61,863 bases of DNA, taken from positions 1 to 61,863 of the forward strand of contig DAHVRZ010000004.1 of assembly GCA_027324805.1 (NCBI GenBank), in the 5' to 3' direction. The position numbers and the translations under genes were made by a program. The notes beneath the pieces are model-generated. The model was not told the origin of the DNA, made no database searches, and saw nothing but the letters and a program-made list of their open reading frames with translations. The stretch comes from Candidatus Parcubacteria bacterium (GTDB taxonomy: Bacteria > Patescibacteriota > Minisyncoccia > UBA6257 > 2-01-FULL-56-20). Positions 3,063-40,550 of this stretch are shown piece after piece. How positions within the stretch are numbered: position 1 is the first letter of the stretch; each line of letters opens with the position of its first letter.

Positions 3063-3106
3063 GATGTAATCATACCATTCACTAAAACAATAAGGTTTTT
3101 CACTTA

Positions 3107-4321
3107 TTAAGGGACATTTTGAACAAATGCCGGCTTCCGCTTCCACTGAAGCCATCCCCATCCCGCGGCGATAAGCGCCACCACGCCGCCGATGACGATC
3201 GGCACGCGTGCGCCGAATGCATCAGCGAGCCACCCGGAGATCGGACCGCCGATCGGCGTCGTGCCGATAAGAAGCACCAACTGGAGCGCGAGTACGCGTC
3301 CGTGCATCTCATGTTTGGACTCCGTCTGCACGAGCGTCGTTGTAGCCGTCATATAAAGGATGCTCGACATGCCGACAAGGAACATGGCTGCGGCCGCAAA
3401 GACGATATTCGTCGTCGCGGCGAGTACAAGCATGGTGATGCCGAGCGCTGCAGCGCCGAGGATGATATGGTTCATCTTCACCCAATTGCGCCGGGCAACG
3501 ATCAATGTGCATACGACGGCGCCCGCGCTGAAGATCGAGTAGAGAACGGTAAACGCCGTATCGCCGCCGCCGAGCGACATATGAACAAAAAGAGGCAGTG
3601 TGACCGTAAAGTTATACGACATCACGCCGATGAGCGCGAGGATCGTAAAATTTATCAAAAGCAACGGCGTTCCAAGTACGTAGCGCAGGCCCTCGCGTAT
3701 CTCCCCTTTCGTTCGCTCCTTCGGCGCACGCCGATGAAGATCTTCCGTGCGCATCATGGCGAGCGCGATCAAGACGGCAATGTACGTAAACGCATCGATC
3801 GCAAAACACCAGCCATATCCGGTCGTCACGATAAGAAGTCCCGCAAGCGCCGGACCAAGAATCCTCGGAACATTCATGGTCGTGCTGTAGAGCACGACGG
3901 CATTGGCAAGATCGTCGGGCGGTGCCATCTCGCTCACGAACGAACGGCGAAGCGGATTGTCAAAAGAAAGGAAGATGCCGCCAAACCCCGCGAGAATATA
4001 AAGTGCCGCGATCGGCGGATGCGGCATGAATGCCACGATCGCAAGCCCGAACGACTGCGCCATTTCGAAGCTTTGCGTGATGAACAGCATCTTCCGCTTA
4101 TCCACGCGATCCGCAATGGCACCGGCCCAAGCCGAAAGGAAAAGGATGGGGCCGTACTGAAAGGCCGCCAGGAGACCCACATCAACGCCGCTCCCGGTGA
4201 TCTTCAGCACCAGCAGTGTTATGGCGACGTTCGTCAGCCAATTCCCCGTATTGGAGATCAGCTGGCCGAAAAAGAAAAGGCGAAAATTGCGGTTTCGCAG
4301 CGAACGAAAAGTTTCTTTCAT
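3107..4321 (-). CDS. MFS transporter
   Basis: 404 aa with about 12 hydrophobic helices. N-terminus RNRNFRLFFFGQLISNTGNWL and ADRVDKRK loop are typical of MFS exporters. Confidence 0.85.
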   Translation of the reverse strand: MKETFRSLRNRNFRLFFFGQLISNTGNWLTNVAITLLVLKITGSGVDVGLLAAFQYGPILFLSAWAGAIADRVDKRKMLFITQSFEMAQSFGLAIVAFMPHPPIAALYILAGFGGIFLSFDNPLRRSFVSEMAPPDDLANAVVLYSTTMNVPRILGPALAGLLIVTTGYGWCFAIDAFTYIAVLIALAMMRTEDLHRRAPKERTKGEIREGLRYVLGTPLLLINFTILALIGVMSYNFTVTLPLFVHMSLGGGDTAFTVLYSIFSAGAVVCTLIVARRNWVKMNHIILGAAALGITMLVLAATTNIVFAAAAMFLVGMSSILYMTATTTLVQTESKHEMHGRVLALQLVLLIGTTPIGGPISGWLADAFGARVPIVIGGVVALIAAGWGWLQWKRKPAFVQNVP

Positions 4322-4337
4322 TGTTATGTAGATGACT

Positions 4338-4440
4338 ATAACAAAAAAGCAGTTCCATTGCTGAAGCTGTTTCCATATTCTTTCTGCGGTGCTCGCTTAC
4401 CGCTTCGCCCACTGAGGGCGGACTTTTTCGCAAAAAACGC
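4338..4440 (-). repeat. degenerate rpsI 3'-end copy (reads ...KVRPQWAKR-stop) plus flank homologous to 14680-14745
   Basis: ttaccgcttcgcccactg at 4397-4414 matches the true rpsI end at 14848-14865. The neighbouring aaacagcttcagcaatgg block is also shared with the rpsI downstream region. Confidence 0.7.
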
Positions 4441-4564
4441 CATAATTCGCGTTGCTAAGTTCAAATAGAACCGATAACCCTTTTTCACCGTGAATACGAT
4501 TCAACCCATTCTCCTGTGTTGTATATGATAAAATAAAGTAAAGTTCTGCAATTATCCCACTTTC

Positions 4565-5752
4565 ATGCACCACCGTTTCGCTTTCACCCTCATCGAACTG
4601 CTCGTGGTTATTGCCATCATCGCGATCCTTGCGGTGGTCGTTGTATTGGTTTTGAATCCCGCCCAGCTTCTCGCGCAATCGAGGGATGCGAACCGTATTT
4701 CGGATCTCTCAACCCTCAAATCCGCACTTTCCATATATCAGACGGATCAAGGAACGGGTGGTATGGGAACGTCGAGTATTATGTATGTTTCAGTTCCCGA
4801 CGCATCGTCCACCTGCGGCGACCTCGGGCTTCCGTCGGCCGGCCCGGATGTCTGGAGCTGTAGCAGTATCTCCGCATATCGTAGCACAAACGGCACAGGT
4901 TGGATCCCTGTGAATTTCGCCGCCATCAGCTCCGGCGCCCCGTTTGGTTCACTTCCGGTGGATCCGATCAATCAAACGAGCAGCGGACTTTATTACACCT
5001 ATGAGACCAGCGGCTCGACCTATGAACTGACCGCAGCACTGGAATCATCAAAATACGCCTCAACCGCACAGAATGACGGGGGTCAGTATGCCGACCTCTA
5101 CGAACAAGGGACAAGTCTCGCTTTGGTACCGGTGGATTTTCATATGGAATCGCAACCAATCCAACTCCGCGGAAGCGCAATCGGAGCTACCAGTGGTACA
5201 TCGATCACGCTCAATCTTCCCTCGGCATCTCAGGTCGGAGATTTGGCGATTATTTTTGCTCACGCGAACCAAAGCGCTATTTCCATTTCGCCTTCCGGAT
5301 GGACCCAGCTCAATCAAGCTGGAGGGGCATACATTGCCGGATGGACATTTTCAAAAACTCTCACCAGTTCGGACATATCTACCGGTTCTGTCACCATAAC
5401 TTTCAATAGTAATAATGGCCCTGCCGCCGCTTTGGCCGTTTTCGCCGGCAGCACGGGAGGGATAAGAGAAACAGACGTCCTTGAATATGGTGGCACTTTC
5501 AGCTCGCCAATTGTTGGGCCATCCACATCAGCAGCAGTGGCTGGTACAGATGCAGCTCTTTTATTTGGTGGGACCAATGCCACGTCGACTGATACTATTA
5601 ACTACGGAGTCACACAGCAGACTACTAACACAAATTCGGAGGTGCTCACATTCCAAACGGTTTCCGGCGCGGGATCGTTCACTCCAACGTTCAGCTATAG
5701 CAATCCCGGCACTGGATATTATCAATCAATAGTAATCGTAAAACATAACTAA
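4565..5752 (+). CDS. type IV pilin-like protein with a large C-terminal domain
   Basis: N-terminus MHHRFAFTLIELLVVIAIIAILAVVVV is a prepilin cleavage/methylation-type motif. About 350 aa of Ser/Thr/Gly-rich globular region follows. Confidence 0.8.
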   Translation: MHHRFAFTLIELLVVIAIIAILAVVVVLVLNPAQLLAQSRDANRISDLSTLKSALSIYQTDQGTGGMGTSSIMYVSVPDASSTCGDLGLPSAGPDVWSCSSISAYRSTNGTGWIPVNFAAISSGAPFGSLPVDPINQTSSGLYYTYETSGSTYELTAALESSKYASTAQNDGGQYADLYEQGTSLALVPVDFHMESQPIQLRGSAIGATSGTSITLNLPSASQVGDLAIIFAHANQSAISISPSGWTQLNQAGGAYIAGWTFSKTLTSSDISTGSVTITFNSNNGPAAALAVFAGSTGGIRETDVLEYGGTFSSPIVGPSTSAAVAGTDAALLFGGTNATSTDTINYGVTQQTTNTNSEVLTFQTVSGAGSFTPTFSYSNPGTGYYQSIVIVKHN

Positions 5753-5825
5753 CCCGCAGACGGACAACTCTTTAGTAAAGTAGCCCGACGAAAATCTTAT
5801 ACCGCACCCTTCCTGCAAAATCTCC

Positions 5826-6061
5826 GTCTGCGGCGCTAGCCGCTATGGCGCAACAAAACTCCCCATCAGGCAAGTTTCCTGTGGGGAGTTTTTGAGTTTT
5901 TCCCTTGTTTTCCCGGGCCCCTGGGCCACCCCAGAAATTATGGCTCGTTTAGCGCTTCGCCCACTGGCACGCTCTGGGCTGTGGCGAACCTTAGAGGCCG
6001 TTTTGTGCCCGTATTTCCTACTGCGATTTTCATCGCGCAAGAATCGCGCAGAAGATCGCGC
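5826..6061 (-). pseudogene. rpsI 3' fragment plus rpsI 3' flank (repeat copy A)
   Basis: 5826-5966 aligns by eye with 14716-14865 (rpsI stop, 3' UTR, terminator, about 30 nt beyond). 5943-6061 aligns with 13439-13558. One minus frame reads FLRDENRSRKYGHKTA, compared with true S9 FLTRDSRMVERKKYGKRKA, and is frame-broken. Confidence 0.75.
5859..5893. terminator. bidirectional terminator hairpin
   Basis: ctccccatcagg-caagtt-tcctgtggggag followed by TTTTT. The same hairpin occurs at 14761-14793. Confidence 0.7.
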
Positions 6062-6107
6062 CATGATTTCACTTTACTCGTAAAGTACGGGGTGGGCTTT
6101 AGGTTTT

Positions 6108-6632
6108 TTATATACGATCTCCATTCCGTGAGATCGGTATGCCCAACCGTCGTGCCTCCGCGATAAGATACCGCTGGATCACGCGAGCATTCCGAAGGTG
6201 CGCTTTATTGCGGACGACGTTCTTTTTGCGATGAGCGAAAAACTGTCGTCGGTGATCTTTTGCGGATGGCGCAAGCAGAATGACATCCCCGGTCTTTAGA
6301 AATCGGTGAGGGTCAAGAAATGCCGCCTCGAGGACGAACCCCCGACGGTGCTTCTTCAGCCACTTGACGATGGTAGAATGGAGCGCCTTACGCACATTTA
6401 GAAACCCCGCGATGATATTCTTCTCGGTCCGCTTCCCGATAGCCTGGTACGCTTCGGTAGTGGGCAGGAAATAAAACGGTGATTGCGATGTCGTTCTCCC
6501 TTTTTGGGCTATCTTCCTCAACATATCCGCCTCAATATGCGGCACGCCATACTTTTTTGCGAGACGCCGGGCAAGCTTCGTCTTGCCGGAACCCGGTACG
6601 CCGTAGATGATGAATTTTATCGGGCGGTTCAT
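6108..6632 (-). CDS. P-loop NTPase/kinase-like protein
   Basis: Walker A GVPGSGKTKLA at the N-terminus, size about 174 aa. Last gene of the 10-gene operon. Confidence 0.65.
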   Translation of the reverse strand: MNRPIKFIIYGVPGSGKTKLARRLAKKYGVPHIEADMLRKIAQKGRTTSQSPFYFLPTTEAYQAIGKRTEKNIIAGFLNVRKALHSTIVKWLKKHRRGFVLEAAFLDPHRFLKTGDVILLAPSAKDHRRQFFAHRKKNVVRNKAHLRNARVIQRYLIAEARRLGIPISRNGDRI

Positions 6633-7267
6633 TCTGTAAAAGGAATGGTAATTTCTTCAATCAAACGCGCTTTTTCATCGCCGTCCTCTTTTCTGTAAAA
6701 AAACACCGCAACACCTGAAACAGTTATCTCCTTTCCTTCAATAGGTTTGAGATTTCTCTCCGATTCTGCGATATCAGCCTGCGGTTTATCAAAATCAATT
6801 TCGCCAAGCGTGATATGAGGATCGAATTCCTCTTCCGGAAAATTGTATGCTTTCAAGCTTTCACGACTTCCGTCGGTAAGGATACCTTGCTTCTCCAATT
6901 CCTTCTGCTTCTTCTCGCGGATAAAGGGACTGCGATATGGATTCGCCATCTCCGTTATCTTCTCATGTAATTCCTTCAATTTCTCTTTATTGGAAATATC
7001 CATAATATAGAGATTCCGATGACGATCCTCCTCGCGCCTCACTTTGGGCGCAAGCAAGAAGATTGTAAACGGCTTCACATGAAACCTGCGCAATTCATCC
7101 AACAACTTCGGATACCCTTCTGCCGTATAGCTATCAAGATAGAGCGTAATGTGCGGCTCCGATTTATAGCTGCTCCCGTATTCAGAAATGTAGCGTTGTT
7201 TCTCCGTCCGTAGAGCGCGAGTAATCTCCTCGGGAAACGTCACGCGGATACTGATGTCATATTTCAC
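6629..7267 (-). CDS. 2H phosphoesterase superfamily protein (LigT/CPDase-like)
   Basis: Two H-x-T-x motifs, EPHITLY and DPHITLGE, spaced as in 2',3'-cyclic phosphodiesterase/2'-5' RNA ligase folds. 4-nt overlaps with both neighbours. Confidence 0.75.
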   Translation of the reverse strand: MKYDISIRVTFPEEITRALRTEKQRYISEYGSSYKSEPHITLYLDSYTAEGYPKLLDELRRFHVKPFTIFLLAPKVRREEDRHRNLYIMDISNKEKLKELHEKITEMANPYRSPFIREKKQKELEKQGILTDGSRESLKAYNFPEEEFDPHITLGEIDFDKPQADIAESERNLKPIEGKEITVSGVAVFFYRKEDGDEKARLIEEITIPFTE

Positions 7268-7845
7268 AGTTTTAATAAATCTTCTAGTTCAGACAAAACG
7301 ATTGGTGTCTGCACAAAACCATCATCCGTCGTGATATGTCCCGCGCCGTGCAGCACTACGATCTTCGAGCCGAACTCGCTGAACCTCTGCTTATTTTCCT
7401 CGAACGAATCGTAGGGGTCGTTATCAGAAATGATCAGCGTTGATTTCGGCAACACGGTTTTGATTTTGACCGGATTGATAGGCCGCTCGATCCACGGTCT
7501 CGCGATAGCCCGCGTTTCGTCGTCCTCGAGGTTCTTCAGGTTAAACCATCCAGAGACGAACACCGCCCCACCGACCGTCTTCATCGGTTCAAAACGATGT
7601 GCGTCGAGATACCGGAGGATAGCTTGGCAACCGATGCTGTGGCCCACGAAATACGTGTTCTTGTCCGGTACGTCTATGACCGTCGCCAACTTCCCTACCC
7701 ATTTTTCAATGACTGGCGTGTCGCTGTCTGGCATCTCCGGGACGAGAACTTCGTATCCTTCTTTTTCAAGCTGCGCTTTGAGCCATGGCCGCCAATCGTC
7801 ATTCGGGCCGCCCGACCAACGATGGACGATGATGATTCTTTTCAT
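7264..7845 (-). CDS. alpha/beta serine hydrolase (YdeN/RBBP9-like)
   Basis: Nucleophile elbow GHSIGC, C-terminal GAGH, about 190 aa, N-terminus IIIVHRWSG. Confidence 0.7.
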   Translation of the reverse strand: MKRIIIVHRWSGGPNDDWRPWLKAQLEKEGYEVLVPEMPDSDTPVIEKWVGKLATVIDVPDKNTYFVGHSIGCQAILRYLDAHRFEPMKTVGGAVFVSGWFNLKNLEDDETRAIARPWIERPINPVKIKTVLPKSTLIISDNDPYDSFEENKQRFSEFGSKIVVLHGAGHITTDDGFVQTPIVLSELEDLLKL

Positions 7846-8567
7846 TGTTCTTTCTCTAATATGTCAGGAATTTTATTTCTCGGGATTTTTCTTACTTTCA
7901 CTTTATCCATTTTGAGGATATGGGCTTTCATGAGCCGGTGCAAACCATCGAGGATAAGCCAGCGGCCCTTGTTTTCCATGATGTCGATCGGATATTTCAG
8001 ATCGCAATTCATCGTGCGCCCGTATTCTGCCTTGTGGGATTCTGGATGCTCTATGATCTCGCGCGATGTGAGATTGTATCTGCCGCCGTCCCTCCAATGA
8101 AATGGGACGTCGAAATGCCATGCGAGTTCGCTTATCGGCATGTCTTCCGTTGGAACATCGAGCGCCCACACCGCTTCGTTTTTCCAAGGGAACTCAAAGC
8201 CGACCTCCTTGATGATCTTGGGAAAATCGGCATCCCAATCCTTTACCGGAATGAAGTGAATTATCTTGACCGCCGTAGCCGGTCCCACCTCTTTGCCGGG
8301 ATAGTAGCTCCGATAGGCGGCATACATCGCTTCGTCGTCCGGGAAGCGCTCATGGCCCTCCCAGTCGTGGTCGTCCAACTCCTTGATCGGCTTCTCAACG
8401 ACCTCCGTGACGACGGCGCGGCTAAAGACCTTCTTCGTTTCCCAATTCACGAGTTCCGCCACGTCCCCCGCTTGCAAATTCTTATCGTCGAAAAGCCGCC
8501 ACGTTGTAGTTTTTTCGCCATCTGTTATCAGCTGCGCGAGCGCAGGGCGGAACTTGAGAGTTTTCAT
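7842..8567 (-). CDS. ASCH (PUA-like) domain fused to a ParB/Srx-like domain
   Basis: The N-terminal part (FRPALAQLITDGEKTTTWRLFD...GDVAELV) resembles ASCH. The C-terminal part contains WLILDGLHRLMKA, a DGxHR ParB-like nuclease/Srx motif. Start set to the ATG at 8567 (MKTLKF), directly after the upstream stop. Confidence 0.6.
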   Translation of the reverse strand: MKTLKFRPALAQLITDGEKTTTWRLFDDKNLQAGDVAELVNWETKKVFSRAVVTEVVEKPIKELDDHDWEGHERFPDDEAMYAAYRSYYPGKEVGPATAVKIIHFIPVKDWDADFPKIIKEVGFEFPWKNEAVWALDVPTEDMPISELAWHFDVPFHWRDGGRYNLTSREIIEHPESHKAEYGRTMNCDLKYPIDIMENKGRWLILDGLHRLMKAHILKMDKVKVRKIPRNKIPDILEKEQ

Positions 8568-8568
8568 G

Positions 8569-9324
8569 TCATTTAAATTCCAGATACAGCGGTAAATGGT
8601 CGGACACCTCATCCGACAAAACCTTGAAGTCCACCACGTCCACCTCCGGAGAAACCAGCATATAGTCGGAGAATCTCAATGGCTTCTTGTAATGGCTGCT
8701 CCGCGTTGAAGTGATTCCGTATTCCTTGATAAGGTTCCGCGTCGGGAGGCCCTCGATCATGCCGATGCTTTTCGTGTCCGGCTCCAAATTGAAGTCGCCG
8801 CAGATGATCTCTTTGCCAGTTACCTTGCTTGCGAGGCTGAGAATGCGTTTACTCTGCTCAAACCGCGCTTCGCTATCCTTTTTTATGCTTCCTTGCCATA
8901 ATCCGTGGACGTTGACAATCACATGACCGGCGACATTAACGGCAATCGACGCGCCCGCCGCAAAACCTCCATCGTAGTCATTCCATTTTGTTCCCAGATC
9001 GTATAACGTAACGCTCCCGACGAGGGATTGCTTCAAATTCTTCTTCACAAAACAGGCGACGCCGTAATCGAAATCCAATCCCTTCAAGCTCTCGCTGTAA
9101 TAACCGCCTTCGCCGTATCCAGAAAAGTAGCTCGTATGACCCGGGAGCAGACCGACGATCCGCTCATAGCAATCTTTCATTTCCTCACGGGCGGTCTTTC
9201 CGGTGCCGCCTTTGAGGACTTCCTGAAAACAGAATACGTCCGTTTCCAATGCGTGTTCTTTGATAAAGACAACGAGCGGATCGGATATCTTGCCGCCCCA
9301 GATATTGAGCGAGACGAGCTTCAT
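8569..9324 (-). CDS. endonuclease/exonuclease/phosphatase (EEP) family protein
   Basis: MKLVSLNIWGG, FCFQEV and C-terminal SDHLPLYLEF motifs. Confidence 0.8.
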   Translation of the reverse strand: MKLVSLNIWGGKISDPLVVFIKEHALETDVFCFQEVLKGGTGKTAREEMKDCYERIVGLLPGHTSYFSGYGEGGYYSESLKGLDFDYGVACFVKKNLKQSLVGSVTLYDLGTKWNDYDGGFAAGASIAVNVAGHVIVNVHGLWQGSIKKDSEARFEQSKRILSLASKVTGKEIICGDFNLEPDTKSIGMIEGLPTRNLIKEYGITSTRSSHYKKPLRFSDYMLVSPEVDVVDFKVLSDEVSDHLPLYLEFK

Positions 9325-9328
9325 GGTT

Positions 9329-10549
9329 TCATTCGGTGCCTTTGTTATCCCTGACCCCTCTTACCTCCTTCACGAAAAAGTCGACGCCGTCCGACAGGAC
9401 TTTGGCGTAGCCTGCGTTTTGAAACGCCCCTCCCCTCAACTCCCCATATTTCGCCCAGCCTGTGCGCATGAGGAACGTCCGAACGCATCCTCCGTGAGTT
9501 ACTACGAGTACGGTCTTTCCGGGGTACGCGGCCGCGATCTCTCGAAGTTGGACAATAAACCGGCTGACCACTTCTTCATCGCTTTCCATGTCGTCCGCGA
9601 AGCGGAACTTCCACTGTTCATCGTGTGATAGCTTCCCTTTTTCCATGAGGAGACGCTGCGCTGTTTCTTGAAAGGCCGAAGACGGCCCTCCTTCGAAGCG
9701 TCCGTATTTCCGCTCCCGCAGGAGCTTCGAGGTCTGTATGGCCAGCTGCCGGTCGAGCTTTATGATCTCGGCCGTCCTCACTGCCCTCGGCGAATCCGAC
9801 GAAAATGCCGCATCGAACCGAATTCCCTTCAGCTCTTGCGCGGTTGCCTCAACCTGTTTTACCCCTTCCGGCGTGAGCGGTGAATCCATCTGCCCCATGA
9901 CGGTATGATTCTTATTCCATTCCGTCTCGCCATGGCGCACGAGGTAAAGCGTGCAGTAATTTTTCTCCCGTTCTTTCAATGCGATGCCTTCCATCCTGAT
10001 CACGGACAGCATGCCGTCTATGCTCTCCAACTCCGCAAAGCCGCAGTCCTCGATCCTAACATCTCCCAATTTCAAGATTTCTCGGAAGACGAATGAGATC
10101 GGACCGCCATGGGAAAGGATCGCTATCGTTTGATACGGCTGTTTGGTGATGGCGTCGAGCGATTTCCGGATGCGCTCCCCGAAGCGTTCGTAGTTTTCGC
10201 TTTCCGGGACGGCATGCCGATGATTCTTCAGTGCCTCAACATGTTCCGGATGTTTCTCCTTCGCTTCGCTTTTCACCATGCCCGTGAGGATGCCATACAT
10301 GTTTCGTTCGCGGATATCGTGCACAACCTCGACTTTACATCCGATTTCTTTCGAAACGATTGCCGCTGTCTCTTGAGCGCGGATCTTCGGGCTGCAAAAG
10401 ATGATCTCAATACCGGAGTTTTTTAATTTGTCCGCCAGCTCGCGAGCCTGCGCTTCTCCCTCCTCGGTAAGGTGGTCATTGTAATCGCCGCCGAAGCGAT
10501 CTTCTAAATCACCTGTCGTTTGCCCATGCCTGATAAGATATATCTTCAT
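9329..10549 (-). CDS. tandem histidine phosphatase (phosphoglycerate mutase family) protein
   Basis: Two RHG modules, IYLIRHGQT at the N-terminus and LYLVRHGETEWN mid-protein, each followed by an SHGG/THGG-type motif. Confidence 0.85.
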   Translation of the reverse strand: MKIYLIRHGQTTGDLEDRFGGDYNDHLTEEGEAQARELADKLKNSGIEIIFCSPKIRAQETAAIVSKEIGCKVEVVHDIRERNMYGILTGMVKSEAKEKHPEHVEALKNHRHAVPESENYERFGERIRKSLDAITKQPYQTIAILSHGGPISFVFREILKLGDVRIEDCGFAELESIDGMLSVIRMEGIALKEREKNYCTLYLVRHGETEWNKNHTVMGQMDSPLTPEGVKQVEATAQELKGIRFDAAFSSDSPRAVRTAEIIKLDRQLAIQTSKLLRERKYGRFEGGPSSAFQETAQRLLMEKGKLSHDEQWKFRFADDMESDEEVVSRFIVQLREIAAAYPGKTVLVVTHGGCVRTFLMRTGWAKYGELRGGAFQNAGYAKVLSDGVDFFVKEVRGVRDNKGTE

Positions 10550-10995
10550 TTGAGCTTCGCGGTGATTTGTTTTGATATGTCCTGCAATTCCGCCTCCGGC
10601 GTCGTCTCGCGCGATCCGGGACGATAGAGGAACTTGCGCGGCTCATATTCGGTAATCCCTTCATCTCCAGTCTTGCGCGGGACAATATGGAGATGAAAGT
10701 GCGGAATGGACTGGCCCGCAATCTTTTCTTCGTTCCATACATGATGAAATCCTTCCGCGCCGAAGAGATCCTCGAGTGCCGCTTTTACCTCCGTCATGAG
10801 TGCGAATATCGCCGTCTTCTCGTCAGCGGTCAACTCTTCGAATTTCTGCACGTGCCGCACCGGCGCGACAAGCGTGTGGCCCGGCGCGATCGGAATGTTC
10901 GTCAAAAATGCCCACGCGAGACCGTTATTCTTGACCGTGCGGGTCTTGATTTCCGGCAGAGTGCAATAGACGCAGTCCATATTGATGATTGACAC
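10546..10995 (-). CDS. HIT family nucleotide hydrolase/transferase
   Basis: Histidine triad HFHLHIVPR. ATGA overlap with the downstream gene. Confidence 0.85.
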   Translation of the reverse strand: MSIINMDCVYCTLPEIKTRTVKNNGLAWAFLTNIPIAPGHTLVAPVRHVQKFEELTADEKTAIFALMTEVKAALEDLFGAEGFHHVWNEEKIAGQSIPHFHLHIVPRKTGDEGITEYEPRKFLYRPGSRETTPEAELQDISKQITAKLK

Positions 10996-10998
10996 GGG

Positions 10999-11553
10999 TT
11001 ATTTAATGAGCGCTTTCATTTTCTCAAAGAGATCCAACATATCCGGTCGTAGAATTAAATAAATGAATTTCTTCTTATCTTCATCACTCAAATGGCCCAA
11101 TGAGCCAATTGGCCGCGCCTCAAAACCCAACGCCTTTCCTTCTTCTATTTTCAGATCTCTGACATCGCCGTGATAGACATAGGCGTACTGCGCCCGGATC
11201 GTATTGTTGATCGTCTTGGTCGCGGGATCTTCCGACCGCTTATGAAGCGTAAGTATGAGATGAAGGTCGGCTGGATTTGGTATGACCCCGGTCTCCTCCT
11301 CCATCTCCTTGATCGCCGTCTTCTCGTATGAATCGCCCGGCTCCACATGGCCGCCTACGGTCGCGTCCAGAAGATCAGGGAACGTATCCTTGTCCTTCGC
11401 ACGATGCTGGAAAACGATTTCCCCTTTCGGCGTGACGAACCAGATGTGGATCTCGCGGTGGAGCAGGCCTTTCTCGTGGATTTCTCCACGGGTCGCCTGG
11501 CCAATCACACGATCATTTTCGTCGACAATTTCTAAAATGCGGCTGTCGGGCAT
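10999..11553 (-). CDS. NUDIX hydrolase
   Basis: Nudix box GGHVEPGDSYEKTAIKEMEEETGV. Confidence 0.85.
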   Translation of the reverse strand: MPDSRILEIVDENDRVIGQATRGEIHEKGLLHREIHIWFVTPKGEIVFQHRAKDKDTFPDLLDATVGGHVEPGDSYEKTAIKEMEEETGVIPNPADLHLILTLHKRSEDPATKTINNTIRAQYAYVYHGDVRDLKIEEGKALGFEARPIGSLGHLSDEDKKKFIYLILRPDMLDLFEKMKALIK

Positions 11554-11570
11554 GGAACAATAGATGGTGA

Positions 11571-12023
11571 TTAGCGTTTAATGGAAACCTTACTGATGTT
11601 GCCGTTCAAAAATATCGGCTGCAAGCCAAACACCTCCTCCATGAAACCGAGCCGTTCCGAGATGGGGTTCAAGATGAATATCGGTTTCTTCCGGTCAAAA
11701 CCGATCGCCGCCTCGATAAGCGTATTGCCGCCGATGTAGCCGGGGACGCCTTTCTTTTCATAATTGAGGATCAGCACCGCATCGCCGCTTTTCACTTTGT
11801 TAAGATGGTTTTTGATGAGCCACGTCTTGCGGGTATACTTCTTGGGGTCGGCAAACCACGTTTTATACGTCTCCACGCGGTAATCGCCGCTCTTCTTCAT
11901 CTTCATCGCCGTATATGGGAGCTTCACGGCGTAACCCATCTTCTTAAGCTCCTTTTCCACTTCGAGCGCCTGCTTGAAGAAGGCGGCGCTGCAACAAATG
12001 GTGATTGATTTCTTCTTTTTCAT
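11571..12023 (-). CDS. nucleoside 2-deoxyribosyltransferase/DNPH1-like fold protein (paralog B)
   Basis: DAVLILNYEKKGVPGYIGGNTLIEAAIGF parallels DAVLIVNLEKQGVKNYIGGNVLIEMGQAY in the upstream paralog. Start trimmed to MKKKKSITI at 12023. Confidence 0.55.
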   Translation of the reverse strand: MKKKKSITICCSAAFFKQALEVEKELKKMGYAVKLPYTAMKMKKSGDYRVETYKTWFADPKKYTRKTWLIKNHLNKVKSGDAVLILNYEKKGVPGYIGGNTLIEAAIGFDRKKPIFILNPISERLGFMEEVFGLQPIFLNGNISKVSIKR

Positions 12024-12024
12024 A

Positions 12025-12453
12025 TCAGGCAATGGCGGCGAGGTCGCCGTTAAGGCAGATGGGATCCATCGCTTCGATCTCATCCATGTACGAAAGCCCT
12101 TCCGGCATGCCGTTTAGGAAGAAGATCTTCTTGCCATTCACGTAGGCCTGTCCCATCTCTATGAGGACGTTGCCGCCGATATAGTTCTTCACGCCCTGCT
12201 TCTCAAGATTCACAATGAGCACGGCATCGCTCGCGAGGATGTTCCCATAATGTTCATTGAGGTAATTGTTCTCCCGTTTGATCGCGGCACGTTCGCCGTT
12301 GCGCCAGCGCGTTACGATGTCCTGCTTGTCGCCGCGGGCAAACGCTTCGTAATCTGGATGTATCCAGCCGTCATAGCCGAGTTCACGCAGCCGATCTTTA
12401 CAGGCAACCATTTCCTTGTAGAAATGGCTGCTTCCCAGAACGTAAATCTTCAT
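12025..12453 (-). CDS. nucleoside 2-deoxyribosyltransferase/DNPH1-like fold protein (paralog A)
   Basis: MKIYVLGSS start, a conserved acidic residue in the IGGNVLIEMG block, about 140 aa flavodoxin-like pattern. First gene of the operon. Confidence 0.55.
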   Translation of the reverse strand: MKIYVLGSSHFYKEMVACKDRLRELGYDGWIHPDYEAFARGDKQDIVTRWRNGERAAIKRENNYLNEHYGNILASDAVLIVNLEKQGVKNYIGGNVLIEMGQAYVNGKKIFFLNGMPEGLSYMDEIEAMDPICLNGDLAAIA

Positions 12454-12460
12454 GACTCAT

Positions 12461-12466
12461 ATTGTA
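12461..12466 (-). promoter_or_regulatory. -10 element (TACAAT) 7 nt upstream of the operon's first ATG, a leaderless geometry
   Basis: The minus strand reads TACAAT-atgagtc-ATG. No Shine-Dalgarno sequence is present. Confidence 0.45.
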
Positions 12467-12621
12467 GGGCGGCTTCGCCAAAAACGGAAGCGCTCCCCGA
12501 TGTCCGAATTCTGCACCCTTACCGCCGCCACTATCGGGACGCGAGCTACAAAACGTCATCTTTTACAGCATTGAGAATGCTCCCTTTTATTTTCTCCGCG
12601 TTCCCGTGCTTCATCATGCCG

Positions 12622-12652
12622 AAAAAGGGCGATCCTCGCATGAGGACCGCCC
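12622..12652 (-). terminator. rho-independent terminator downstream of 12810..13283
   Basis: gggcggtcctc-atgc-gaggatcgccc hairpin followed by TTTTT on the minus strand. Confidence 0.65.
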
Positions 12653-12809
12653 TTTGGGATGCCGAATAGTTCGGCGAAATTATTGCCATTAGGTCACAGG
12701 AGCTGATGTACTGCGCCCGCTTTGAAGCGGTGTTCTGCTTCTTTCCATATGAGGCCAGTGTAATGGTCCGCGGTGGTGCGCAGGGGCTGTGCATGTAAAG
12801 CACATTAAA

Positions 12810-13283
12810 CTATCGTTGCTCTCCGGCGCGAAGCGGGAAAGGACCTCTTTTCGCCCCCCGAGAAGAGAAACGATAATTTACACCGTTATGCAGAAGTACG
12901 AGATTAAGCCTCGTAAACCAATAACGGTAATATTCCTTTTGGCCACAAACAGAAAGAGGAAGAACGCAGCCCGGTTCCTTCCGTACCGCTTCCATAATCG
13001 CTCGTTGCTCCGAAGTCCATGGAAGTTCCATAATTTTTACCCAATCAGCCGATTCAAGCGGTCGGCTGGAAGGATAAAACGATAACTTCTTCTTCCGTCG
13101 CACGAGCGAAATGTGAGCGTTTACCTTTGGCGAGTCAATATTTATGAAGACTTGCCCTAATTGAAGCCCTTCAGTTGTCGCCCATGCTTGAATGAGCATC
13201 AATAGTTTTTCCTTGGCCTCCATAGCCATCTCCTCGCGAAATATCGCTGAGCATTTTATACCATTTTTTATTAATTTTTGCAA
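12810..13283 (-). CDS. hypothetical protein
   Basis: 157-aa ORF with ordinary composition, bracketed by terminators. The start is uncertain (alternative MAMEAKE). Confidence 0.4.
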   Translation of the reverse strand: MQKLIKNGIKCSAIFREEMAMEAKEKLLMLIQAWATTEGLQLGQVFINIDSPKVNAHISLVRRKKKLSFYPSSRPLESADWVKIMELPWTSEQRAIMEAVRKEPGCVLPLSVCGQKEYYRYWFTRLNLVLLHNGVNYRFSSRGAKRGPFPLRAGEQR

Positions 13284-13334
13284 TCCAATACAAAAATCGC
13301 CCTTTCAAGCGGTCTTTGTTTGCTGACAATCCAT

Positions 13335-13371
13335 AAAAAGTGAAAGGCTGGCAGCGCAAAGCACACCAGCC
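13335..13371 (-). terminator. terminator-like hairpin following rpsI fragment copy B
   Basis: ggctgg...ccagcc stem followed by a T-rich run on the minus strand. Confidence 0.45.
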
Positions 13372-13438
13372 CTGCCCATAGCAGCCCTCTGTGAAGAATG
13401 AGAGCGGAGGATTGAGTATGGGAAATCAGCACCGAAGC

Positions 13439-13558
13439 GCTCGTTTAGCGCTTCGCCCACTGGCACGCTCTGGGCTGTGGCGAACTTTGGGAGGCCGTTT
13501 TGTGCCCGTATTTCCTACTGCGATTTTCATCGCGCAAGAATCGCGCGGAAGATCGCGC
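13439..13558 (-). pseudogene. rpsI 3' fragment (repeat copy B)
   Basis: About 120 nt nearly identical to 5943-6061. It ends with cagtgggcgaagcgctaa (QWAKR-stop), like true rpsI. Confidence 0.75.
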
Positions 13559-13646
13559 AAGGATTTTTGTATGCGGAACCGTCTATGTTCACTTCAATGG
13601 TCAATCCTTCTTCCATTCACGCTCATTCTACCGCTGTATCTGCCAA

Positions 13647-13671
13647 CCAAAAAGCCCCGGTTTGCCGAGGC
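13647..13671 (-). terminator. rho-independent terminator (module also present at 14135-14158)
   Basis: gcctcgg-caaa-ccggggc followed by TTTTTGG on the minus strand. Confidence 0.65.
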
Positions 13672-13695
13672 TTCCTGTTCTAACTTGGTCTGCGC

Positions 13696-13722
13696 AAAAA
13701 AGGCGCACCGCATGGATGCGCC
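13696..13722 (-). terminator. rho-independent terminator immediately after 13744..14037
   Basis: ggcgca-9 nt-tgcgcc followed by TTTTTT on the minus strand. Confidence 0.65.
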
Positions 13723-13743
13723 CCTGAAATCTGTGCCGCCGTA

Positions 13744-14037
13744 TCAAGCGGCTTCATCTAGTTTATAAACTTGCATCGGTTGCGAATCGTCATCAGGCCA
13801 GATGACGCCGTATCCCCGTTCCTTCCACCACGCCCCAGCGAGCGGAGTAATGTATCTACCCCACTGCGCAATGCGCTGGTGCACTTCTGCTCGTTGATGT
13901 GGACGCATCACTTCGTATACGTCGTTTGAGTTGATGCGGTTCTGGGAAAGCCACGCCGTTCGCAGTTTTCTGATGTAGCCTTCGTATTCCTTATTCAGGG
14001 CGTCGACCTCGGACTGCAGGGATGTAGCCTGACTCAT
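13744..14037 (-). CDS. hypothetical protein
   Basis: 97-aa ORF preceded by AGGAGG 6 nt upstream of the ATG and followed by tandem terminators. Confidence 0.6.
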   Translation of the reverse strand: MSQATSLQSEVDALNKEYEGYIRKLRTAWLSQNRINSNDVYEVMRPHQRAEVHQRIAQWGRYITPLAGAWWKERGYGVIWPDDDSQPMQVYKLDEAA

Positions 14038-14134
14038 GTTTGCCTCCTATTCTGGTTTGACCCATTCATATGAAAGCATTTCGTCCGCCTTTCTGCTGGC
14101 CAAAGTCTAGCATGATATTTGAAATTAAAGCAAC

Positions 14135-14158
14135 CAAAAAGCCCCGGTTTACCGAGGC
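14135..14158 (-). terminator. rho-independent terminator following rpsI fragment copy E
   Basis: gcctcgg-taaa-ccggggc followed by TTTTTGG on the minus strand. Near-duplicate of 13647-13671. Confidence 0.6.
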
Positions 14159-14190
14159 CTTTTGTTCTGTAGCTAGTCCGCAGCACTCTC

Positions 14191-14237
14191 CTAGCGCTTC
14201 GCCCACTGCAACCCTTTGGGCAGATATGGGCTTTAGG
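14191..14237 (-). repeat. short rpsI 3'-end copy (repeat copy E)
   Basis: ctagcgcttcgcccactg (QWAKR-stop) plus about 25 nt resembling copies A and B. It lies directly after the stop of 14240..14674. Confidence 0.6.
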
Positions 14238-14239
14238 AC

Positions 14240-14674
14240 TCAGCGTTTCGCCGCCTCTCCCTGGAAGAACCAATGGACGCCGTATCTGTCGGCAAGGTGT
14301 CCATAACTCCCGAACGGCATATCCCGCAGATCATCGAGCAGCGACGGATCCGCGCCGACGGCGAGCTTGTCGAATATCGTCCTCAATTCTTCATACGTTT
14401 CCCCATTAATGTACATCGCGACAGTATTTCCCTTCACGGGCTTGCGCGTGGGATGGAGCCAGTCAGTTGCGGAAAATGAAACCGCGCCGCTCTCAAGGTG
14501 TGCGTGGGCAACTTTTTGATGCTGCTCCGGTGGCATCTGCGCTTTCATGGGAGTATCGCCGACCTTCGTCACGGTCAGCTCGCCGCCGAGGCACGACTGA
14601 TAGAACGCCATCGCATCGGCACAGTCGCCGTCGAACAAAAGGAATGGAGTGAGGTTCAGCATATCTTGCATCAT
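14240..14674 (-). CDS. VOC/glyoxalase superfamily protein (PhnB-like)
   Basis: LTPFLLFDGDCADAMAFYQSCLGGEL N-terminus and FGSYGHLADRYGVHW C-terminus are typical of PhnB-like VOC proteins. Start trimmed to the MMQDM cluster, because the longer ORF runs through a hairpin. Confidence 0.7.
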   Translation of the reverse strand: MMQDMLNLTPFLLFDGDCADAMAFYQSCLGGELTVTKVGDTPMKAQMPPEQHQKVAHAHLESGAVSFSATDWLHPTRKPVKGNTVAMYINGETYEELRTIFDKLAVGADPSLLDDLRDMPFGSYGHLADRYGVHWFFQGEAAKR

Positions 14675-14715
14675 AACAGAAAACAGCCCCATTGCTGAAG
14701 CTGTTTTCTGAGATT

Positions 14716-14847
14716 CCAATCTTATGTCTGCGGCGCTAGCCGCTACACGGCAACAAAACGCCCCATCAGGCAAGTTTCCTGTGGGGAGTTTTTAAGATTC
14801 CCCTTGTTTCACCGAGCTTCCGGGCCACCCCAGAAATTATGGCTCGT
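14716..14847 (-). repeat. rpsI 3' flank homologous to repeat copy A
   Basis: Aligns by eye with 5826-5948, with most positions identical and a few indels. Confidence 0.7.
14761..14793. terminator. rpsI terminator (bidirectional hairpin)
   Basis: ccccatcagg-caagtt-tcctgtgggg with T-runs on both strands. Confidence 0.7.
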
Positions 14848-15306
14848 CTAGCGTTTCGCCCACTGAGGAGATCTGCGCGCTTTCCGCTTGCCGTACTTCT
14901 TGCGTTCCACCATGCGCGAATCGCGGGTGAGGAATCCCATAACACGGAGGCGCGGCTTCCAGTCGGCGCTCTTTGCAACGATTGCACGGGAAAGTCCGAG
15001 GCGGACCGCTTCGGCTTGGGCGTGGATACCGCCGCCGGAAACATTGACGGAAACATCGAGATCGGCGATTTGGAGCTGTTCGAGCGGAGCCTTCGCGGCG
15101 GCAATAAGGCGCGGGAGCGTGAAATAGCTCTTGATGTCCATTCCGTTCACGGTCACCTTGCCCTTGCCGGCAACGATGCGCACGCGCGCGATCGCGGTTT
15201 TGCGGCGGCCGACGGCCTCGGTGTAACGACCCGAAGCGGGCGCGTGATGCGCCGCGATGTGGTGACGCGGTGTGGGTTCCTTTTTGGTTGTCTCGGTGAT
15301 TGCCAT
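14848..15306 (-). CDS. rpsI: 30S ribosomal protein S9
   Basis: GRRKTAIARV ... GGGIHAQAEA ... C-terminus KRKARRSPQWAKR. Start trimmed to MAITETT, just after the rplM stop. Confidence 0.95.
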   Translation of the reverse strand: MAITETTKKEPTPRHHIAAHHAPASGRYTEAVGRRKTAIARVRIVAGKGKVTVNGMDIKSYFTLPRLIAAAKAPLEQLQIADLDVSVNVSGGGIHAQAEAVRLGLSRAIVAKSADWKPRLRVMGFLTRDSRMVERKKYGKRKARRSPQWAKR

Positions 15307-39144: not shown

Positions 39145-39158
39145 GGAAAGAATAGTGG

Positions 39159-40514: not shown

Positions 40515-40521
40515 ATTGTTC

Positions 40522-40544
40522 AGTATACCGTATGCGGGTACACT
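40522..40544. promoter_or_regulatory. back-to-back divergent -10 elements for cydA (minus) and the thioredoxin-like gene (plus)
   Basis: Minus strand: TATACT-7 nt-ATG (cydA). Plus strand: TACACT-6 nt-ATG (40551). The whole intergenic gap is 36 bp. Confidence 0.5.
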
Positions 40545-40550
40545 GATTCC

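Follow-up and report, generated by a model that had tools for sequence, protein, structure and literature searches.

A probable tandem array of mobile, integrase-less cassettes at the 3' end of rpsI in a Parcubacteria bacterium

The rpsI locus and the five copies of its end

The window, that is, the whole stretch of DNA analysed here, comprises 61,863 nt of Candidatus Parcubacteria bacterium (GCA_027324805.1, contig DAHVRZ010000004.1, positions 1 to 61,863, forward strand). Its rpsI gene (14848..15306, minus strand; ribosomal protein S9, 152 aa, PF00380 on the called gene) is the last of the rpoA-rplQ-rplM-rpsI cluster and ends in ...SPQWAKR*, these last codons being the target site. An 18-mer of the stop-codon region occurs five times with at most 3 mismatches, always on the plus strand (at 4397, 5949, 13445, 14191 and 14848), while 0.06 copies are expected by chance from dinucleotide shuffles; the five same-orientation rpsI ends reported in an earlier note on this DNA are thus real. 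They split the 10.4-kb stretch between rpsI and an MFS gene into four blocks, and the block contents given in that note agree with the ORFs and Pfam matches. The repeated unit is a core of about 23 nt, CAGTGGGCGAARCGNTAR plus about 5 nt, which covers the last five rpsI codons and the stop codon and has a weak, lineage-dependent inverted-repeat architecture.

All five copies are read on the minus strand. Copy A (14843..14865; CAGTGGGCGAAACGCTAG plus acgag) is the functional rpsI end. Copy B (14186..14238) joins a core (14186-14208) to a pseudo-rpsI extension (14209-14238; nhmmer E = 6e-17 to the extension model), copy C (13440..13566) has a longer extension (13463-13566; nhmmer E = 3e-18), and copy D (5944..6069) has a frame-broken one (5967-6069). 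Copies C and D are 95% identical (5943-6069 against 13439-13566 in self-BLAST). Over 21 nt, copy E (4392..4414; CCTCAGTGGGCGAAGCGGTAA) shows no difference from the end of rpsI in locus L181, the closest relative (S9 identity 94%), and is therefore the displaced native end. The functional end A differs from that of L181 at three positions, all within the last seven bases (AAA CGC TAG against AAG CGG TAA), and copy E retains the relative's form.

Self-BLAST also matches 5826-5979 to 14726-14878 at 85%, in line with the proposal that the 5826-5966 copy shares the rpsI 3' UTR, the terminator and about 30 nt beyond with 14716-14865, and 13432-13492 to 14178-14238 at 72%. Two further pairs, both at 89%, had been overlooked: 13644-13681 with 14131-14168, the terminators on either side of a 97-aa gene, and 4338-4372 with 14673-14706, the hairpin H2. 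Folding energies agree with a hairpin after each copy, weak only after the 4397 copy: -18.7 kcal/mol (z -3.8) at 14750-14800, -20.9 (z -4.7) at 14125-14172, -19.3 (z -1.7) at 13325-13380, -23.2 (z -5.7) at 5850-5900, and -7.3 (z -0.8) at 4335-4380.

The S9-like tails ascribed to copies C and D stand in part. Copy D is frame-broken as claimed, but copy C reads ...RFLRDENRSRKYGHKTASQSSPQPRACQWAKR* in a single frame. In both, the likeness to S9 is clear over the last 45 nt or so and weak further upstream, where z reaches 3-6 for roughly half the rpsI genes of the relatives and tblastn gives no significant match. What B and E have in common with rpsI is a core stretch of about 23-30 nt, B having in addition its pseudo-rpsI extension of about 30 nt. 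The arrangement CCTAAAG-22 nt-core is common to B, C, D and the relatives' copies L004_2, L011_2, L084_2 and L198_3, while the same spacer is 18 nt in real genes; moreover, GLK is not encoded by the hosts' own rpsI genes of the window, L004 and L084, which have GKRK/GKKK in its place. The module of B, C and D matches displaced copies in other genomes and not the host's own rpsI. None of B, C and D is a fragment of the host's own gene; they represent a pseudo-rpsI module carried by the cassettes.

Cassettes and their end modules

The features below lie on the minus strand unless stated otherwise, and are given from rpsI outward. Cassette 1 opens with a leader (14716..14842) made of an rpsI-type 3' UTR, the terminator T1 (14761-14793) and about 30 nt beyond, which shares 85-88% identity with 5826-5943 and 91.9% with the flank adjoining rpsI in L193. 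A second terminator, H2' (14673..14706; 89% to 4338-4372; dG -21.6, z -5.8), stands ahead of the cargo gene, and hairpins of its type are also found 3' of rpsI in L181 and L188 and 3' of core 2 in L204. The cargo is a VOC/PhnB-like protein of 150 aa (14240..14692; PF06983, PF00903). Cassette 2 is opened by a terminator of the D8 type (14131..14168; dG -20.9), with homologous hairpins after the functional rpsI core in L204 and after the distal core in L004 and L182. It carries a 97-aa protein with no Pfam family (13744..14037), followed by a second D8-type terminator (13644..13681; 89% to the first; dG -23.2).

Cassette 3 starts with a hairpin (13335-13371) and a TTATGGATTGYCAGCA module (together 13291..13371). 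A 46-nt stretch is 91% identical to the flank next to rpsI in L004, and the module is also present after core 2 of L182. Its cargo (6108..13283) consists of an uncalled 157-aa ORF (12810-13283) and a 10-gene operon, in which Pfam identifies Nudix, HIT, double histidine phosphatase, EEP nuclease/phosphatase, ASCH, serine hydrolase, 2H/LigT phosphoesterase and P-loop kinase genes, and no recombinase domain. Two paralogues in the operon, labelled nucleoside-deoxyribosyltransferase-like in the earlier note, have no Pfam match. Cassette 4 has a leader like that of cassette 1 (5826..5943: UTR, T1 at 5859-5893 and about 30 nt beyond), 91.2% identical to that of L193, and its cargo, a type IV pilin-like protein of 395 aa (4565..5752; PF07963 N_methyl), lies on the plus strand. 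Beyond copy E, the weak hairpin H2 (4338..4372), a homologue of the terminators that follow rpsI in L181 and L188, precedes the genes of an MFS transporter (3107-4321) and TspO (2580-3161). These two genes (2580..4321) may also be accessory. In L188, whose ribosomal proteins are 93-96% identical, different genes follow rpsI and synteny returns only at the homologues of window positions 1156-2430 and 208-990.

The G+C content of the island is 51.2%, against 56.6% outside it, and every equal-sized window outside lies above it (55.0-57.8%). The island is thus more AT-rich as had been noticed by eye, but the flank is well below the suggested value of about 63%, so that the contrast was overstated. 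In two further assemblies, contigs run collinear with the window across the copies that they span (A-D in one, all five in the other) with 2-5 SNPs; three independent assemblies agree, and the repeats are no chimera.

The same site in related genomes

Overall, 35 non-redundant loci were surveyed. No core copy was found in 212 kb upstream of rpsI and none on the other (minus) strand, so the core is no generic intergenic repeat. Extra copies occur only downstream of rpsI, on the same strand, in at least 11 related Parcubacteria loci with entirely different cargo; they match the consensus in L004, L011, L084, L088 and L182, and are variants of the locus's own lineage in L005, L198, L204, L031, L065 and L096. 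Between rpsI and common right-hand anchor genes the relatives carry differing cassette sets, and one site appears empty: in L090 rpsI lies about 490 nt from an OmdA/YdeI-like gene. L004 and L084 hold one block each (1.8 and 1.3 kb) and then a displaced core near the OmdA/YdeI-like gene, with a methyltransferase gene in between in L084, and L182 and L005 hold two cassettes each.

Near-identical strains part 0-7 nt after the rpsI stop. L192 and L193 are 99.6% identical over 10,447 nt and unrelated from 7 nt past the stop; between L004 and L182, homology ends 6 nt past the stop and resumes exactly where the distal core begins. L007 and L008 differ by a replacement that begins at the stop codon, with no second core. 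A homologue of the 97-aa protein, 86% identical, lies directly 3' of rpsI in two other contigs; in L204 it follows the same opening terminator, and the DNA identity is 84% for the cassette and 73% for rpsI. Likewise, the cassette leaders are 91-92% identical to that of L193, the ribosomal operon DNA only 80-81%.

We found no recombinase in the island (ORFs and Pfam), in the 62-kb window (a search tested in part with HMMs) or in the relatives' cassettes, about 17 cassettes having been examined in all. This agrees with the earlier remark that no integrase or transposase is recognisable in the region. Nor do the roughly 17 cassettes, from 9 genomes, contain whole or broken genes of an integrase, a relaxase or a phage, and a search for a circular, plasmid or phage form of any cassette found none.

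Origin of the array

In many related genomes the rpsI end is a hotspot for insertions, breakpoints sit at the core, and cassettes and end modules are common to different lineages at a higher identity than the neighbouring ribosomal genes. We therefore consider it probable that the 10.4 kb are a tandem array of four mobile, integrase-less cassettes, built by successive recombination at the core of about 23 nt. Each cassette would come with a mimic of the rpsI 3' region: a 3' UTR and intrinsic terminator at the rpsI-proximal end and, often, a pseudo-rpsI coding tail that leads into the core at the distal end. Insertion at the core would restore a complete rpsI with a terminator, and would move the previous rpsI end and all older cassettes further downstream; copy E with hairpin H2 would thus be the end that the gene had originally, and the VOC cassette would have arrived last. 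Repeated insertion with newer ends displacing older ones, as proposed from the window, is supported in the relatives by polymorphism, breakpoints, copy E and cassette order. The 97-aa cassette, second here and directly after rpsI elsewhere, would fit sequential insertion. We infer a conservative site-specific reaction, of the tyrosine-recombinase type with an identity segment. Because none of the roughly 17 cassettes encodes a recombinase, the enzyme most likely comes from another part of the genome or from a helper element. Against the site-specific reading stand the missing recombinase and circular form, the weak inverted repeats, and the L007/L008 replacement with no second core. The end modules would be expected from any mechanism that copies a donor's rpsI flank, and are no proof of a site-specific enzyme.

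Such a mechanism is conceivable with no dedicated recombinase, although we think it rather unlikely. DNA from related cells would be integrated by RecA, with the ribosomal operon as a long left anchor and, on the right, a short core, or core plus terminator, pairing ectopically with a displaced core of the donor array; arrays would lengthen or shorten, in the same tentative scheme, by misaligned homologous recombination between cores. The failure to find an integrase anywhere searched speaks for it, as does the apparent donor-native rpsI 3' UTR and terminator with which every cassette opens, just as predicted. The junctions of L198 each repeat about 75 nt (core, UTR and terminator), which suffices for RecA, SNP mosaics among L192, L193 and L194 reveal ongoing homologous exchange in the operon, and L007 against L008 is a clean replacement from the stop codon with no duplicated core. 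However, with 17-23 nt the cores at most reach the length that RecA usually needs to pair efficiently, the breakpoints lie 0-7 nt from the stop in three independent pairs, and the model leaves the origin of the first duplicated core unexplained. In addition, the pseudo-rpsI extension family, with a shared 4-nt insertion in five genomes, spread as a non-coding module and was not re-derived from the donors' functional genes.

It is improbable that the blocks are decayed integrase-carrying elements (IME, ICE or prophage) that targeted rpsI and lost their recombination and transfer modules, leaving immobile cargo and att scars. Many decayed elements are indeed among the streptococcal rpsI accretions (PMC5357655), copy D is frame-broken, core 3 of L182 is degenerate, and terminators and cores diverge by 10-15% between copies. 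Yet not one of the roughly 17 cassettes keeps an integrase, relaxase or phage remnant; they are small (0.65-7.5 kb) and often single-gene, the same small cassette is found intact in another lineage, and strain-level variation at the site is recent. An ancestral long array, inherited vertically with differential cassette loss, is very improbable and already contradicted, and so are an assembly artefact and a generic intergenic repeat. The D8 terminator and TTATGGATTG module common to the window, L004 and L182 could have been inherited, but no cargo is common to arrays among the loci sampled from the rpsI side, and for the sole shared cassette (97-aa, L204) the identity exceeds that of the adjoining rpsI, which speaks for transfer and against inheritance. 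Inheritance also fits poorly with an island G+C content below that of any equal-sized window outside and with leaders more conserved than coding DNA. An artefact is at odds with the agreement of the assemblies, and a generic repeat with a core never found away from the rpsI downstream region.

Comparison with known systems

The reading as mobile, integrase-less cassettes can be compared with several systems. Site-specific accretion is known at the 3' end of fda in Streptococcus thermophilus (ICESt1/ICESt3), where CIMEs (cis-mobilizable elements) are att-bounded cargo with no recombination or transfer genes and use the integrase of a related element. The arrays here are alike in such cargo between att-like bounds, whereas no helper element or integrase is known for them. 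Integron arrays and CALINs (attC clusters with no integrase) likewise have small, cargo-only, mostly co-oriented cassettes with a conserved recombination module at the 3' end and no integrase inside, the newest adjoining a fixed platform site. Here, however, there is no intI beside the platform, the sites repeat a gene end directly and are not structured imperfect palindromes (single-stranded folds have z from +0.5 to -1.7, with no attC-like folding), each cassette supplies a terminator and does not rely on a platform promoter, and one cassette has 10-11 genes and one is inverted. The integron-like and tRNA-island-like labels of the earlier note hold as analogies only, given sites that do not fold like attC and no adjacent integrase.

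In the tycheposon arrays of Prochlorococcus, the 3' end of the target is restored, a displaced fragment lies at the far end, and multiple partial copies and cargo-only segments occur. The same is true of tRNA/tmRNA-targeting islands (Islander, PMC4383910), in which the displaced fragment of the split target marks the far end and arrays have several partial target copies and cargo-only segments. Unlike in both, the target here is the last codons of a protein gene, with no integrase at any array examined. IMEX elements at dif, and pdif modules, which are Xer-dependent and moved by a host-encoded recombinase, resemble our case in having integrase-less modules between repeated short sites and tandem arrays at one chromosomal site; the site here, however, is not at a replication terminus (in 7 of 8 loci the GC skew does not change sign across it), the core has no 11-6-11 dif-like architecture, and the copies are all direct while pdif sites alternate in orientation.

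The closest case is that of streptococci, where ICEs, IMEs and decayed elements are known to have accumulated in tandem at the 3' end of rpsI (PMC5357655). These accretions, driven by tyrosine integrases (PMC5357655, PMC4701971), use the same target gene and the same end, with rpsI-3'-end direct repeats flanking each element, several elements at one site, and decayed, integrase-less members. A streptococcal stack has one or more elements that encode a tyrosine (or serine) integrase, and relaxase or coupling-protein genes, and none of the roughly 17 cassettes here has either; the host is a member of the Parcubacteria (CPR), and its cassettes mostly have 1-10 genes with a conserved pseudo-rpsI tail and a terminator leader. 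Tandem accretion at rpsI itself is hence already known, and the array is best read as a variant of it with integrase-less cassettes.

Organization of the repeat copies and the island

On the plus strand the 18-mer over the rpsI stop, CTAGCGTTTCGCCCACTG, recurs with 1-3 changes at 14191, 13445, 5949 and 4397, and with the functional end at 14848 this makes five matches, all on the same strand, while 0.06 are expected from shuffled sequences. No inverted copies of the core, the ~23 nt over the last five codons and the stop of rpsI, are present in the window. The first core (A) is the functional rpsI end and the remaining four (B, C, D and E in the order just listed) mark the block boundaries, all being co-oriented direct repeats of the rpsI end. 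The self-BLAST of the region pairs 5826-5979 with 14726-14878 (85%), 5943-6069 with 13439-13566 (95%) and 13432-13492 with 14178-14238 (72%), and it adds two pairs absent from the list of the earlier note: 13644-13681 with 14131-14168 (89%), near-identical terminators on either side of a 97-aa gene, and 4338-4372 with 14673-14706 (89%), a second hairpin type referred to here as H2. The folding energies of the hairpins 3' of the copies are -18.7, -23.2, -20.9 and -19.3 kcal/mol; the one after the copy at 4397 is weak (-7.3 kcal/mol). Cassettes 1 (a VOC gene) and 2 (the 97-aa gene) are co-oriented and have a single ORF apiece, cassette 3 holds 10-11 genes and cassette 4, with a pilin-like gene, is inverted; a terminator opens each of them. 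The number, orientation and positions of the copies, the hairpin behind each and the gene contents of the blocks, checked by ORFs and Pfam, are thus as the earlier note had described them.

Three of its descriptions hold in part. The island is indeed lower in G+C (51.2% versus 56.6%, every equal-sized window elsewhere being higher, at 55.0-57.8%), while the flank does not reach the supposed ~63%. The reading frame is broken in copy D as described, but copy C is a single open frame. The tail, that is the pseudo-rpsI extension preceding the core, had been taken as S9-like over about 100 nt in C and D; it is convincingly rpsI-like over the last ~45 nt only, with weak similarity farther upstream, and without the core its S9 likeness at the protein level is not significant in tblastn. 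The repeats are not an assembly chimera, since contigs of two other assemblies, one spanning A-D and the other all five copies, carry the same arrangement with 2-5 SNPs. We also observe that the VOC gene ends in ...GEAAKR* with GGCGGCGAAACGCTGA (14240-14257), which agrees with 13 of the 18 core bases and immediately precedes the tail of copy B; this end may be a sixth, degenerate copy supplying the stop codon, or it may be due to chance, 13/18 being within chance for a 10-kb region.

Gene surroundings and cargo

The organism belongs to Parcubacteria/Paceibacteria (CPR), the nearest matches being MAGs labelled Candidatus Parcubacteria or Paceibacterota. In the window rpsI closes the cluster infA...rpsM-rpsK-rpsD-rpoA-rplQ-rplM-rpsI. 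The Rfam search finds no tRNA or credible known RNA family inside the island, and the only five tRNAs are far away. By exact-protein search, S9 and the MFS protein match the same strain only, RecR gives no match and L9 only short contigs.

The largest block carries at 6108-12453 (minus strand) an operon of ten genes for enzymes that process nucleotides or RNA ends, which includes two deoxyribosyltransferase-like paralogues (31% identical, without Pfam match), a Nudix and a HIT protein, a fused double histidine phosphatase, EEP, ASCH, a serine hydrolase, a 2H/LigT phosphoesterase and a P-loop kinase. Beside it, 12454-13743 is a stretch of 1.3 kb without a called gene, containing copy C, its hairpin and a 157-aa ORF with TTG start (12810-13283), which is skipped by public gene calls and has no Pfam match. 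Elsewhere, at 38365-40844 (minus strand), the genes for subunits I (PF01654, 5e-103) and II (PF02322) of a cytochrome bd oxidase adjoin a DsbB-like gene, a respiratory oxidase being unusual in a Parcubacteria genome.

The rpsI flank in related genomes

The comparison of rpsI flanks among relatives, which the earlier note had proposed, reveals different cassette sets and a polymorphic gene order; in the closest genomes, no gene downstream of rpsI is common with the window. Extra same-strand copies of a genome's own rpsI end lie downstream of the gene in loci L004, L005, L011, L031, L065, L084, L088, L096, L182, L198 and L204. Over 35 non-redundant loci holding the core, there is none upstream of rpsI in 212 kb and none on the opposite strand, and the nhmmer model built from the displaced copies matches rpsI ends and positions downstream only. 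Since all its copies share one strand and lie either at the rpsI end or downstream of it, the core-containing unit is tied to rpsI, and a generic repeat of REP or MITE type is ruled out.

Different inserts can be compared at loci sharing an OmdA/YdeI-like gene. This gene lies ~490 nt after rpsI in L090, while in L004 and L084 one block (1.8 and 1.3 kb, respectively) stands ahead of a displaced core near it, with a methyltransferase gene between the displaced core and the OmdA-like gene in L084, and in L182 and L005 two cassettes precede it. The first block of L005 (12251-13780), from rpsI core to displaced core, contains guaA (GMP synthase), and this locus is in a complete 827-kb chromosome.

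Pairwise comparison places the breakpoints at the stop codon. Between L004 and L182, homology ends 6 nt past the stop, directly after GCGTTAAACGAG, and resumes, at 95%, where the distal core begins. L192 and L193, whose S9 proteins do not differ and whose DNA agrees at 99.6% over 10,447 nt, become unrelated from 7 nt after the stop, their last difference before the break being the third base of the stop codon. L007 and L008 split exactly at the stop and reunite after 1.2 kb in the former or 58 nt in the latter, which is a replacement, the second core being absent. In addition, four contigs (L194, L197, L201 and L202) end ~60-520 nt past rpsI, which fits a strain-variable site that breaks assemblies.

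Several further observations concern these loci. L004 and L182 are 86.5% identical on the ribosomal operon side and 95.4% beyond the distal core, which hints that the right flank may have been exchanged more recently than the left. The 1.2-kb block of L007 opens (10440-10640) with a T-loop-like GGTTCGAACCC motif and a hairpin; this stretch may be a small RNA or a fragment resembling a tRNA. Short duplications of 125-220 nt that contain no gene lie between rpsI-end repeats at L065 2166-2307, L096 10367-10558 and L031 9942-10178, the 17-nt core being identical in L065. The same locus has a perfect 12-bp inverted repeat (CACCGCAATGGG...CCCATTGCGGTG) across the stop codon; inverted repeats of this kind occur in ~10 of 26 lineages, so a conserved RNA hairpin over the stop is not a general cause of core conservation. 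The last rpsI codons have less synonymous variation than the codons upstream (CAG 22/24, GCG 20/24, AAG 22/24), which is suggestive only.

Shared cassettes and end modules

The 97-aa protein has an 86%-identical homologue directly after rpsI on two contigs of a different lineage. In one of them, L204, the rpsI core is followed by a terminator and the 97-aa gene; next come a second core, whose terminator is of H2 type, then a 53-aa gene and finally a third core with tail. The hairpin of the first terminator has the same sequence as that after copy B of the window. The cassette DNA is 84% identical to that of the window and rpsI only 73%; with this order and these identities, the window looks like an L204-type array in which the VOC cassette would have been inserted later, at the rpsI core.

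The end modules are shared as well. The leader opening a cassette, ~125 nt of UTR and terminator (T1), is present in two copies in the window, one behind A and one behind D, which are 86% identical mutually; both match the leader adjoining rpsI in L193 at 91-92%, while the ribosomal operon DNA of L193 and the window reaches only 80-81%. The tail pattern of CCTAAAG, 22 nt and CAGTGGGCG is common to B, C, D and the displaced copies of L004, L011, L084 and L198. Functional rpsI genes have 18 nt, not 22, in the position of the spacer between CCTAAAG and the core, and those of the window, L004 and L084 encode ...YGKRK/YGKKK..., while CCTAAAG corresponds to ...YGLK...; because of these differences, the tail is a non-coding pseudo-rpsI module that travels with the cassettes, not the host's own rpsI.

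The far boundary tells what was displaced. The 21 nt of copy E, CCTCAGTGGGCGAAGCGGTAA, recur unchanged at the end of rpsI in L181, which is the closest relative (94% S9 identity), and the H2-type hairpin after copy E is homologous to the rpsI terminators of L181 and L188, while the functional end A reads ...GAAACGCTAG and is followed by a cassette-type flank. As in target-restoring islands, a new 3' end is thus found at A and a displaced native fragment at the far boundary. E is the displaced native rpsI end and A bears an imported tip, the pattern expected if the crossover takes place inside the core. The suggestion that DNA was repeatedly inserted at the rpsI 3' end is essentially right in view of the arrays of relatives, the breakpoints at the stop and E, and its corollary, that inserts supply a replacement end and displace the older one, agrees with the identity of E to the L181 end and with the different terminal codons and cassette-type flank of A.

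Search for a recombinase or a carrier

As the earlier note had remarked from inspection, no integrase or transposase is recognizable: there is no Phage_integrase, Resolvase or Recombinase match in the called genes or the uncalled ORFs of the island (including the gene-poor 12454-13743). In the rest of the window, ORFs that had no other assignment are free of recombinase and transposase domains, and the tyrosine-recombinase box II signature (regex) has no match across the whole window. The Pfam lists of all island genes contain metabolic, pilin or unassigned proteins only, and no relaxase, oriT or coupling-protein gene. In relatives, the cassettes yield no integrase; the sole integrase-type gene in the neighbourhood of their arrays is a housekeeping-type Xer in L092, 5.6 kb from rpsI. 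The searches of viral, plasmid and phage collections find no helper element for the cassettes, PLSDB and INPHARED have no match to the site, and the leader and tail-plus-core patterns give 0 matches. A phage or plasmid carrier of the site was rejected, the 15 IMG/VR matches of the core having no S9 context and all being chance-like.

Other mobile DNA is seen at some loci. IS-type transposases lie 0.4-2.4 kb downstream of rpsI at L092 7080-7805 (by translation alone) and L195 12868-13931 (by an rve domain); mobile DNA of other kinds lands in the rpsI flank too. In L205, in a different context without core, a homologue 69% identical to the 97-aa protein lies between ~90-nt direct repeats of a different type (9800-9890 and 10345-10435), and a large serine recombinase, with an AlwI-type restriction-modification system and ParE/Phd pairs alongside, is ~7 kb away.

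Mechanism and alternatives

On the whole, the ~23-nt core over the rpsI stop codon is a recombination hotspot, at which cassettes stack sequentially and in an oriented manner; cassettes and end modules are exchanged horizontally, and each cassette restores a terminator behind rpsI. We infer that the underlying process would be conservative site-specific recombination at the core by an enzyme encoded elsewhere, on the grounds of the precise breakpoints, the identity segments of 17-23 nt, the conserved tail-core-leader module without coding role and the precedent of streptococcal rpsI (PMC5357655; PMC4701971). That such a trans-acting enzyme builds the array is the account we lean towards, with some reserve.

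Import of DNA from relatives by RecA, anchored on the left by the ribosomal operon and on the right by ectopic pairing of cores, would need no integrase and so accounts for the absence of any. It also accounts for the UTR and terminator of donor type with which each cassette opens, and the ~75-nt repeats of L198 and the SNP mosaics among L192-L194 are in keeping with it. It leaves the origin and propagation of the pseudo-rpsI tail family unexplained, however, and 17-23 nt are short for RecA, and we regard it as rather unlikely. That the blocks are inert remnants of formerly integrase-bearing elements seems quite improbable. Going further with the trans-acting enzyme, one may picture a dedicated cassette-capture platform of Parcubacteria, which would be the functional counterpart of an integron. 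In it the last rpsI codons would serve as a fixed docking site, cargo-only cassettes would carry the conserved pseudo-rpsI tail, core and terminator as their recombination module, and their insertion, excision and exchange across species would be the work of one chromosomal recombinase encoded at a distance from the array; this is a tentative reading, on which we are doubtful.

The CPR/Patescibacteria have very small genomes and few recognizable mobile elements, and to our knowledge their gain of accessory genes is poorly understood. Here, in one large clade, a single, readily recognized locus just after rpsI gathers and exchanges cargo although no integrase is seen there; among this cargo are transporters, nucleotide-processing operons and surface and pilin-like proteins. 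The repeated core offers a signature for accessory genes and strain variation in Parcubacteria MAGs, the variability of the flank would explain the frequent assembly breaks directly after rpsI, and tail, core and leader together make a defined substrate for seeking the responsible recombinase. Should cargo-only cassettes be moved by an enzyme in trans, the system would be integron-like and of independent origin, built around a ribosomal protein gene, and if the platform reading is true, these reduced genomes would have their chief site of gene flux in the rpsI flank.

Comparison with known systems

Integrons resemble the array in having cargo-only cassettes stacked in a row. They differ in that no intI adjoins the site, which has rplM-rplQ-rpoA upstream, and that no recombinase is found in the window. 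The attC sites are imperfect palindromes that fold as single strands and have the ends RYYYAAC/GTTRRRY, while ssDNA folds of seven junctions are no better than shuffles and have no common stem. Integron arrays are made up mostly of promoterless, co-oriented cassettes with one ORF; here cassettes 1 and 2 have this orientation and ORF number, cassette 3 is larger and cassette 4 is inverted, and all begin with a terminator. Integrase-less modules at one site are also known from dif and IMEX elements. The dif site resolves chromosome dimers at the terminus, where GC skew switches, and has the XerC/D architecture 11-6-11. A dif/Xer site was rejected here: GC skew keeps its sign across the site in 7 of 8 loci, and the core has only a weak inverted repeat of 8-9 nt with a 14-nt spacer, in some lineages only.

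In streptococci the rpsI 3' end is targeted by several families of tyrosine integrases, and the tandem accretions there include decayed elements (PMC5357655; PMC4701971). The window shares with such ICEs and IMEs the target and the direct repeats of the gene end, but integrase and mobilization genes were sought in it and not found, so it is not a member of them. Its cassettes are bounded by att-like sites and are without recombination or transfer modules, as CIMEs are, whose excision and integration depend on the integrase of a related element. Functionally nearest are therefore the accretions of rpsI-targeted ICEs and IMEs and the CIME-type elements; the target logic is the same as in the streptococcal elements, while here the host is a CPR bacterium, the arrays consist of integrase-less cassettes only, a pseudo-gene-end module is conserved, and the pattern recurs across many species.
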